A DNA stretch of 64,000 nt from Chitinophagaceae bacterium (GTDB taxonomy: Bacteria; Bacteroidota; Bacteroidia; Chitinophagales; Chitinophagaceae), in contig JANNQR010000045.1 in the NCBI GenBank assembly GCA_031400855.1, forward strand, positions 690 through 64,689, written 5' to 3'. This document shows positions 44,555-45,916 of the stretch, piece after piece. The notes beneath the pieces were generated by a model. It worked only from the letters and a program-made list of their open reading frames with translations, was not told the DNA's origin and searched no databases. Each line of letters begins with the position of its first letter. Within the stretch, counting starts at the first letter, position 1. The translations under genes and the position numbers were made by a program.

Positions 44555-45046
44555 ATGCCATCTTTTGATATTGTAAGTAAAGTTGATGCACAGGCATTGG
44601 AGAATGCTGTGAATGTTGTAACCAAAGAAATTACTAACCGGTTTGATTTTAAAGGTTCACATGTGGTGATTAATCTTGATAAAAAGGAATTTCAGATCAA
44701 ACTTGAAACCGATGATGACATGAAGATGCGGCAATTGATCGATGTACTCATCAGCCGGGCTCATAAACAAGGTATTGGCCCCGAAGCATTTGATGCATCG
44801 AAAGCAGGTGCTCAAAGCGGCAAAGTTTGGAAGAAAGAAGTGAAAGTAAAGAATGGACTGGTACAGGAAGATGCGAAAAAAATTGTCAAGCTTATCAAAG
44901 ATGCTGGTCTGAAGGTTCAAGCATCCATCAATGACGACCTGGTAAGGGTAACTGGTAAAAAAATTGACGACCTGCAGGATGTTATTCAACTTTGCAAAAA
45001 TGGAAATCTGGGAATTCCTTTACAATATGTGAATATGAGGGATTAA
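44555..45046 (+). CDS. yajQ: YajQ-family nucleotide (c-di-GMP)-binding protein
   Basis: MPSFDIVSK, RFDFKG, KVQASI, VRVTGKKIDDLQ, LQYVNMRD. Confidence 0.95.
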   Translation: MPSFDIVSKVDAQALENAVNVVTKEITNRFDFKGSHVVINLDKKEFQIKLETDDDMKMRQLIDVLISRAHKQGIGPEAFDASKAGAQSGKVWKKEVKVKNGLVQEDAKKIVKLIKDAGLKVQASINDDLVRVTGKKIDDLQDVIQLCKNGNLGIPLQYVNMRD

Positions 45047-45126
45047 TGGCTGGAAATACCTGCGTATAGTAAGACTTTCTGTGCATAATCCGGTGCAAAA
45101 CGGGTGCATATCAAAGGGGGCAAAAA

Positions 45127-45159
45127 TTTGGAAACCGGTGGTTTGGTAAACTATATTTG
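45127..45159 (+). promoter_or_regulatory. Housekeeping promoter with no downstream ORF (drives the candidate ncRNA)
   Basis: TTTG (45127-45130)-N21-TATATTTG (45152-45159). Confidence 0.7.
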
Positions 45160-45164
45160 ATATA

Positions 45165-45347
45165 CAACTGCACGAAGTTTTAGCAATAAAATGAAGTGCT
45201 GGAGAAACGGAAGCCCGTCAAAAGGTGGAAGTAACTCCGCGGAGAAACAGAAACCCGTTAAAAGGTGGAAGTGACTTCAGAAAGCATCAGGTAAGTAAAC
45301 AGAAGGCGCAAGCTGGACAGTGAGCTGACTTGGTGCTTTCATCTTTT
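45165..45347 (+). ncRNA. Candidate structured ncRNA (about 180 nt): 5' GNRA hairpin plus three tandem double-T-loop-like modules, terminator-like 3' helix
   Basis: Modules 45201-45238, 45241-45278 and 45280-45340 share AAACRGAA and UGGA(C)AGURA strands between covarying stems; 16-of-17-bp closing helix followed by AUCUUUU; upstream promoter; no credible ORF. Confidence 0.65.
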
Positions 45348-45356
45348 AGGGAGTTA

Positions 45357-45546
45357 GCCACTGATGGACACAGATTAACAGAAATTGAACCCGCATCTGT
45401 AGAATTCTCCAAATTGACTTAGTAGGTAAGACTAAGAAAAGGCAATTATTTACAGAGATTGTATTAATCTGTGCAAATCTCCCGCCAAGTAGGCGGGACA
45501 AGTTGTGTTCATCCCCGCCTGAATGACGCAGTCGGGCAGGTGTGGC
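45357..45546. mobile_element. Non-coding dyad element (GCCAC.GATG.ACACAGAT type) with two nested palindromes in the right arm
   Basis: Left GCCACTGATGGACACAGATTAACAGA; right ATCTGTGCAAATCT[CCCGCCAAGTAGGCGGGACAAGTT]GTGTTCATC[CCCGCCTGAATGACGCAGTCGGGCAGG]TGTGGC; removing the brackets restores the inverted arm. Confidence 0.75.
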
Positions 45547-45567
45547 CAAAATGTATTTTCCTACAAA

Positions 45568-45599
45568 TTTGGCTGTAAACCTTATCCCGCCTATCTTTG
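45568..45599 (+). promoter_or_regulatory. Housekeeping promoter of rpmE2
   Basis: TTTG (45568-45571)-N20-TATCTTTG (45592-45599). Confidence 0.8.
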
Positions 45600-45664
45600 C
45601 CGCCCGAAAAATAATCTTTTAATCTGTACGGCAAAATCCGTGCAGCCTTCAAAATCATCAAGTT

Positions 45665-45916
45665 ATGAAAAAAGGACTCCATCCCGATAGCTACCGGTTA
45701 GTAGTTTTTAAAGACATGAGCAATGGACATTCATTCCTAAGCCGCTCGACTGCTGCTTCAAAAGAAAAAGTACAATGGGAAGACGGTACTGAATATCCAC
45801 TGGTAAAACTGGAGATTTCAAATACTTCTCACCCTTTCTTTACCGGTAAGAATATGCTGGTTGATACTGCAGGCCGTATTGATAAATTCAATAAGAGATA
45901 CGCAAAGAAGGCATAA
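45665..45916 (+). CDS. rpmE2: 50S ribosomal protein L31 type B (zinc-free)
   Basis: [48 protein letters not shown]; no Cys. Confidence 0.97.

Follow-up and report, generated by a model that had tools for sequence, protein, structure and literature searches.

Gene layout of the yajQ–rpmE2 interval

We analysed a window of 64,000 nucleotides of Chitinophagaceae DNA originating from a freshwater-sediment metagenome, within which a gene for a small RNA lies between yajQ and rpmE2. The elements of this locus, with positions counted from the first nucleotide of the window, are as follows.

44555–45046: yajQ, the gene flanking the RNA upstream
45081–45111, + strand: three phased direct-repeat boxes 5′ of the promoter, GTGCATAA at 45081, GTGCAAAA at 45093 and GTGCATAT at 45104, with 11–12 bp spacing
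45127–45159, + strand: Bacteroidota-type promoter of the RNA, TTTG (−33) at 45127–45130, a 21-nt spacer and TATATTTG (−7) at 45152–45159
45164–45347, + strand: small RNA gene of about 180 nt, covered by RNA contigs and without an Rfam match
45341–45347, + strand: U-tract of the intrinsic terminator, AUCUUUU, with the 3′ helix of the RNA as terminator stem
45568–45599: rpmE2 promoter, TTTG at 45568–45571, a 20-nt spacer and TATCTTTG at 45592–45599
45665–45916: rpmE2 (type-B L31), the gene flanking the RNA downstream

An earlier note on this DNA had claimed a Bacteroidota promoter at 45127–45159, an adjoining interval that lacks a credible open reading frame, and a separate promoter for rpmE2, and all three can be read at the locus. 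The promoter is present in the sequence and RNA contigs start just downstream of it; the frames in the interval encode only 27–32 amino acids, with start codons that are not conserved in homologues; and TTTG-N20-TATCTTTG precedes rpmE2 at 45568–45599. A small open reading frame at 45191–45274 (27 amino acids) was considered and dropped because its start codon varies among homologues.

The promoter of the RNA (TTTG / TATATTTG) is unchanged among homologues. The boxes upstream of it share the consensus GTGCAWAW and their cluster occurs once within the 64-kb window, at 45081–45111. All subtypes of the RNA retain the three boxes together with the promoter, including those without an adjoining yajQ, and the boxes are probably an activator or UP-like site. 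Phased direct repeats of this kind resemble the sites of OmpR/PhoB-type response regulators.

Two further observations concern the flanks. Between the yajQ stop codon and the RNA (45047–45163) a search for a terminator-like site found none, and the distance from the yajQ stop to the start of the RNA is fixed at about 117 nt in most loci, so that yajQ transcripts may end at the terminator of the RNA. On the other side, the spacer that separates the terminator of the RNA from the rpmE2 promoter (45348–45545) is swapped or missing in close relatives; it holds the GC-rich palindromes UCCCGCC-AAGUA-GGCGGGA and CCCGCCUGAAUGACGCAGUCGGGCAGG, which recur at three further loci (L081, L091 and L124), and DNA depth reaches 188 at 45502–45540 compared with about 15–25 nearby. 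This spacer looks like a multi-copy REP/MITE-like insertion.

Transcription of an abundant independent RNA

Contigs assembled from seven metatranscriptome runs, from sediment, soil, groundwater and biofilm, cover only 45164–45345 across the locus. Depth in the RNA runs is 400–23,000 on the small RNA compared with 0 on yajQ and 4–50 on rpmE2, values that are assembler word counts on contigs from mixed related species and therefore only semi-quantitative measures of abundance. RNA depth drops to 0 past 45345 in all runs and is 0 between 45346 and 45618, and four RNA contigs of one run start at 45164/45165, 5–6 nt past the −7 box. A DNA run examined as a control is roughly even over the three genes, with a depth of about 15–80. 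The strand of the transcript was inferred from the promoter and terminator. Thus the predicted promoter has a transcript that begins at 45164/45165 and ends by 45345, and the proposal that this is a stand-alone non-coding RNA is borne out by a promoter and terminator of its own and by a transcript confined to 45164–45345. The minimum free energy of the RNA has a z-score of −3.4, and none of 200 shuffled sequences folds as stably. Together, these data show that a small RNA, very abundant and stably folded, has an independent gene at 45164–45347, and the depths suggest that its abundance lies 10 to 1000 times above that of neighbouring mRNAs.

The earlier note had also proposed that the RNA is new. 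We compared 45164–45347 with the covariance models of Rfam 15, whose families include 6S, 6S-Flavo, SRP, tmRNA, RNase P, Y RNA and T-box, and obtained no match at the gathering thresholds or at E ≤ 10; the same comparison for 12 loci that carry divergent subtypes gave nothing at E ≤ 5. A limited literature search, which is weak evidence, found no description of a Chitinophagaceae or Bacteroidota sRNA of this kind. As far as we found, the family is absent from Rfam 15 and apparently undescribed, in agreement with that proposal.

Predicted fold of the RNA

The structural elements of the RNA are listed below, with strands of stems and loops separated by slashes.

45170–45199, + strand: 5′ hairpin, GCAC / GAAG / UUUUA-GCAA-UAAAA / UGAA / GUGC, with a 4×4 purine-rich loop and a GNRA cap
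45201–45238, + strand: module M1, GGAG / AAAC GGAA / GCC-CGUCAAAA-GGU / GGAA GUAA / CUCC
45241–45278, + strand: module M2, GGAG / AAAC AGAA / ACC-CGUUAAAA-GGU / GGAA GUGA / CUUC
45280–45340, + strand: 3′ long helix, GAAAGCAUCAGGUAAGU / GCUGACUUGGUGCUUUC, 16 of 17 bp, enclosing M3 and serving as terminator stem
45294–45326, + strand: M3, a variant of the module at the apex of the 3′ helix, AGU / AAACAGAA / GGC-GCAA-GCU / GGACAGUGA / GCU, with a GNRA cap

Analysis of 24 full-length RNAs with RNAalifold independently returns four hairpins, and this modelling shows a predicted fold in which each of the four carries a 4×4 or 4×5 purine-rich internal loop. The 5′ hairpin, M1, M2 and the 3′ helix with its U-tract are all present in the sequence as the earlier note described them. 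RNAalifold recovers the 5′ hairpin with one compensatory change, from C-G to U-A in homologue L028, and six relatives have a GGAA/GGAA internal loop in this hairpin, as in the modules. M1 and M2 form a direct repeat, 89% identical and 40 nt apart, and share a conserved apical loop of 8 nt, C-N-U-C/U-A-A-A-A. A model of the module, R1, scores M1 at 62.6 bits (E 2e-13) and M2 at 56 bits (E 1e-11); within 471 kb of assorted DNA the module model matches only its own family, and the module pattern gives no chance match in 100 shuffles. M3 has a 4×5 version of the module loop, and its inner stem covaries among GGC/GCC, GGU/ACC, GAC/GUC and AGC/GCU.

For the 3′ helix, RNAalifold reports 13 pairs that are invariant or vary by wobble. 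The base sequence of this helix shows the strongest conservation in the family and is common to all subtypes, an invariance that was partly imposed because the metagenome search pattern demanded this sequence.

Homologues, subtypes and genomic context

When genomes were scanned with a strict tandem-module pattern, most matches were GAA-rich coding repeats (from Bacillus, Marinobacter and others); there were 7 true species matches, all of them Chitinophagaceae metagenome-assembled genomes, so that the breadth of the family in genomes is under-sampled. Look-ups of YajQ supplied further complete or near-complete genomes; the best 120 matches of the YajQ homologue search are all at least 90% identical and served poorly as a yardstick. 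About 50 contigs were added by scanning metagenomes for the 3′-helix sequence. Among the carriers is the cultured Chitinophagaceae bacterium IBVUCB2 (GCA_002127295.1, locus L078). Overall we collected about 45 distinct homologous RNAs, of which those with a named host are from Chitinophagaceae and the remainder lie on metagenome contigs. They fall into the following subtypes.

Window subtype: about 184 nt; 5′ hairpin, two modules and the 3′ helix with M3
One-module subtype: about 146 nt
Short subtype: about 123 nt; without the 5′ hairpin, with one module and with an unrelated GNRA-capped hairpin replacing M3
Variant subtype: modules that read AAGCGAAA/GAUUGCGG

The three tandem modules of the earlier note are therefore a property of the window subtype; relatives bear either one module or two, and the smallest form consists of a single module with the 3′ helix. 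Most loci have the order yajQ–RNA–rpmE2. At two loci (L082 and L106) the RNA follows yajQ and a Pirin-like gene on the opposite strand replaces rpmE2, and the short and L087-type subtypes have unrelated neighbour genes; the protein clusters that adjoin the short subtypes bear names of no taxonomic use. Because some homologues sit away from both yajQ and rpmE2, the RNA is neither an L31 leader nor tied to that locus. Locus L132 holds a second, diverged copy at 950–1160 (− strand), about 640 nt upstream of the first and complete with boxes, promoter, one module with the loop CUUCACUG, 3′ helix and U-tract; some genomes thus carry tandem paralogues. From these comparisons, hairpin number appears to differ by lineage, with paralogous copies in some genomes. 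The RNA family is genuine, ecologically widespread and strongly expressed.

Covariation and architecture of the module

To examine the module across the family we assembled an alignment, A3, of 71 distinct M1/M2-type modules and scored the stems described in the earlier note together with two inner pairs. In A3, 93.7% of cells are paired compared with 32–44% in slid controls, compensatory changes occur at 9 of 9 pairs, and none of 500 shuffles reaches the observed values on four of five measures, with 7 of 500 reaching the fifth, the count of further pair types; these statistics overstate independence, since the sequences are mutually related and modules within one RNA are paralogues. The inner 3-bp stem is paired in 100% of the 71 modules. 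The stems thus covary in homologues, and the pairing that had been seen to persist between the modules of the window holds for the outer and inner stems across these 71.

We aligned the loop strands by anchoring on the inner stem and counted the base combinations that face each other, numbered outward from that stem, in the 71 modules.

Position −6/+6 (columns 8–34): A-U 54, G-C 5, G-U 5
Position −5/+5 (columns 9–33): C-G 49, U-A 11
Position −4/+4: G.A 35, A.A 23, A-U 8, U-A 3
Position −3/+3: G.A 65, A-U 3
Position −2/+2: A.G 57, A.A 12
Position −1/+1: A.G 63, A.A 7

Positions −4/+4 and −3/+3 become A-U where the 3′ base is U. The loop strands therefore face each other and the module is a continuous hairpin, which on this alignment is predicted to begin with the outer stem, continue through two Watson-Crick pairs and then four stacked purine pairs to the 3-bp stem, and end in the conserved loop. 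The substitutions within the purine loop are compatible with stacked pairs of the sheared G.A/A.A type, 5′-RGAA-3′ opposite 5′-GGAA-3′, and exchanges of A.G for A.A are what isostericity predicts for trans Hoogsteen/sugar-edge pairs. Two named motifs were dropped on inspection: the k-turn, as the four stacked purine pairs have no 3-nt bulge, and the sarcin-ricin motif, whose AGUA/GAA is not kept in variants. In the apical loop position 2 is free (G/C/U) and the other positions are fixed, a pattern that fits recognition of shape or by protein better than an antisense seed. Sequence conservation across the modules appears to lie in the loops and not in the stems.

The double T-loop reading

The earlier note had interpreted each of three modules as two interdigitated T-loops stacking on the tRNA elbow, making the RNA a possible triple tRNA clamp. 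M2 of the window lends itself to this reading as AGAAA ... UGGAA, matching AG..A / UG..A, and E. coli RNase P has a similar ACAGAGA ... GGUGAAA around P12. The double T-loop has a core of six residues that hardly vary, AG..A and UG..A (PMC3664808), and position 1 of each T-loop closes on position 5 by a non-Watson-Crick pair (PMC3664808; PMC4810234); the U1-A5 pair of T-loop 2 is reverse-Hoogsteen, the strands interdigitate, and the motif stacks on the tRNA elbow at G19:C56 (PMC3664808). A review anticipates that more instances of the motif exist (PMC4810234), a point in favour of the reading. The alignment of modules argues against it. AGNNA in its best register (A3 columns 10–14) occurs in 19 of 71 modules, with positions 1 and 5 varying between G and A independently. 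The letters UGNNA fit 57 of 71, and the only register that yields UG..A uses a U of the inner stem. A clamp would need this R-U pair to be open, but every one of the 71 modules has the putative T-loop U in a standard pair (A-U 42, G-U 27, G-C 2), which covaries to G-C; M3 mostly has a C, paired with G, in its place. Both core patterns coincide in only 12 of 71 modules, M2 of the window among them and M1 (GGAAG) not, and the AAGCGAAA/GAUUGCGG modules are without the core, their loop becoming a near-Watson-Crick helix. Between the two loop strands the covariation is that of an antiparallel helix and not of interdigitated strands, from C-G to U-A in 11 modules and from A-U to G-C in 5. On these comparisons a tRNA-elbow clamp is not supported and we regard it as extremely improbable; purine-rich strands resembling CR-II/CR-III of RNase P are insufficient to call a T-loop clamp.

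The rpmE2 leader

The 5′ untranslated region of rpmE2 (45592–45664) is almost invariant across about 40 loci. It contains a hairpin at 45624–45645, CUGUACGG-CAAAAU-CCGUGCAG, whose arms show the compensatory changes CUAUACGG/CCGUGUAG; CCUUCAAAAUCAUC lies between it and the AUG. Judged from sequence features, this hairpin is a good candidate for an L31 autoregulatory leader, and a likelier one than the small RNA; the L31 leaders reported in PMC7247131 include none from Bacteroidota. The 5′ end of the small RNA at 45168–45180 (CUGCACGAAGUUU) shows 85% complementarity to the rpmE2 leader at 45633–45645, in the 3′ arm and the loop of its hairpin, and the 5′ hairpin of the RNA and the leader hairpin both begin CUGYACG. 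This match may reflect chance, common descent or a pairing site.

Proposed function and alternatives

Variable hairpin number, paralogues, loop conservation, a free loop position and abundance at a housekeeping level are fitted best by a titrator or scaffold, and our leading reading, which we hold tentatively, is that the RNA may bind protein in this way with its hairpins as repeated binding sites. Every hairpin would offer a copy of one docking site, by which an RNA-binding protein is titrated or scaffolded, as with CsrB/RsmZ or 6S RNA; the conserved 3′ helix would supply stability and termination. A more specific version, in which a lineage-wide decoy or scaffold would use GGAA/GGAA hairpins to titrate a global RNA-binding protein, or else a ribosome-associated protein such as bL31 or YajQ, the RRM-like product of the adjacent gene, is conceivable and on the unlikely side. 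We know of no titrator RNA on the CsrB or 6S principle with such an architecture in Bacteroidota.

A trans-acting base-pairing sRNA, whose apical loops (C-N-U-C-A-A-A-A) or 5′ end ACAACUGCACG would be redundant mRNA seeds, has multi-seed parallels in LhrC and RNAIII and would suit loops that are conserved and predicted unpaired, a promoter of its own with probable regulator boxes, a Rho-independent terminator, paralogous copies and the match of CUGCACGAAGUUU to the rpmE2 leader. We nevertheless consider this function unlikely: the free variation of loop position 2 is at odds with a seed, a pure seed model leaves the conserved internal loops and GNRA caps without a role, and RNAs as highly abundant as this one are more typically of the housekeeping or titrating kind. 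The 5′-end match is moreover buried in stable hairpins of both partners, and changes in the RNA of L028 and in the leader of L025 do not track each other. Those GNRA caps, two of which are conserved together with several tandem G.A helices, could instead belong to a single globular RNA in which the 5′ hairpin and M3 dock through their loops into the hairpins with purine loops for ligand or ion sensing or for catalysis, and the short subtype does keep one module and one GNRA-capped hairpin. Module count and the presence of the 5′ hairpin vary by lineage, however, which would be unusual if every part were needed; pseudoknot or junction covariation is absent, as is a conserved downstream gene to regulate, and a globular RNA is in our judgement quite improbable.

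A relation to L31 would take the form of a cis-acting leader or attenuator of rpmE2, or of a decoy that binds bL31 in trans by sharing a CAAAA-loop hairpin with the rpmE2 leader. It is suggested by the position of rpmE2 downstream of the RNA in most loci, by the loop CAAAAU and following CCUUCAAAAUC of the leader hairpin, which resemble the module loop CUUCAAAA, and by the single-hairpin form of L31 leaders in other phyla (PMC7247131). The cis form is excluded by the strong terminator, the separate and conserved rpmE2 promoter, the RNA depth of 0 at 45346–45618 and the varied neighbours, including loci without rpmE2. Against the decoy, the resemblance is a short A-rich one and variants of the module loop and of the rpmE2 leader are uncorrelated, and we view an L31-related role as very improbable.

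Significance

Soils, sediments, biofilms and wastewater commonly contain Chitinophagaceae, a family in which very little is known of RNA-based regulation. Bacteroidota do not rely on Shine-Dalgarno pairing. In this group, across four kinds of habitat, the depth of the small RNA in metatranscriptomes far exceeds that of its neighbouring genes. Its simple repeated architecture suits pull-down and structural work, and once the partner is identified, a new regulatory system would become accessible in a group of ecological importance. RNA databases can take up the family, which would allow such reads to be assigned.

Comparison with known RNA systems

Several known systems resemble parts of this RNA. 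Type III antitoxin RNAs (ToxI-like) likewise have direct repeats of about 40 nt in tandem, with a terminator after them, whereas the RNA here has only one or two repeats, which are stable hairpins within a larger conserved RNA; no ToxN/AbiE-like toxin gene lies downstream, the neighbours being rpmE2, a Pirin-like gene or assorted others. L31 leaders (Rfam L31-Firmicutes, L31-Gammaproteobacteria and others) share a position upstream of the L31 gene in most genomes and the presence of hairpins, but the RNA here is a separate transcription unit whose terminator precedes the rpmE2 promoter, and L082, L106 and the short subtype have it with no rpmE2 downstream. At the level of the module, the likeness to the double T-loop motif is that purine-rich strands flank a short hairpin and that some copies hold AGAAA and UGGAA; the differences are an unconserved core, a paired U and strands that covary antiparallel. 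Consecutive sheared G.A loops, such as rRNA tandem-GA loops and the non-canonical stems of k-turns, have the same 5′-GA-3′/3′-AG-5′ flanked by R.A pairs, and differ from the predicted stack of four purine pairs here, which has no 3-nt bulge.

Among titrating RNAs, 6S RNA, the looser parallel, differs by its central bubble, which the RNA here does not have, and no 6S model in Rfam matches it. CsrB/RsmZ differ in their A(N)GGA loop motifs, which bind CsrA/RsmA and are absent here: CNUCAAAA or GNRA forms each apical loop, GGA is confined to paired or purine-loop strands, and the conserved features are the 4×4 purine internal loop and the CNUCAAAA loop. To our knowledge, Bacteroidota generally lack CsrA and Hfq. 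What the family shares with CsrB/RsmZ, and more loosely with 6S, is its overall design as a stand-alone abundant RNA with a probably regulated promoter, a terminator, a variable number of similar hairpins, conserved loop sequence and paralogous copies.
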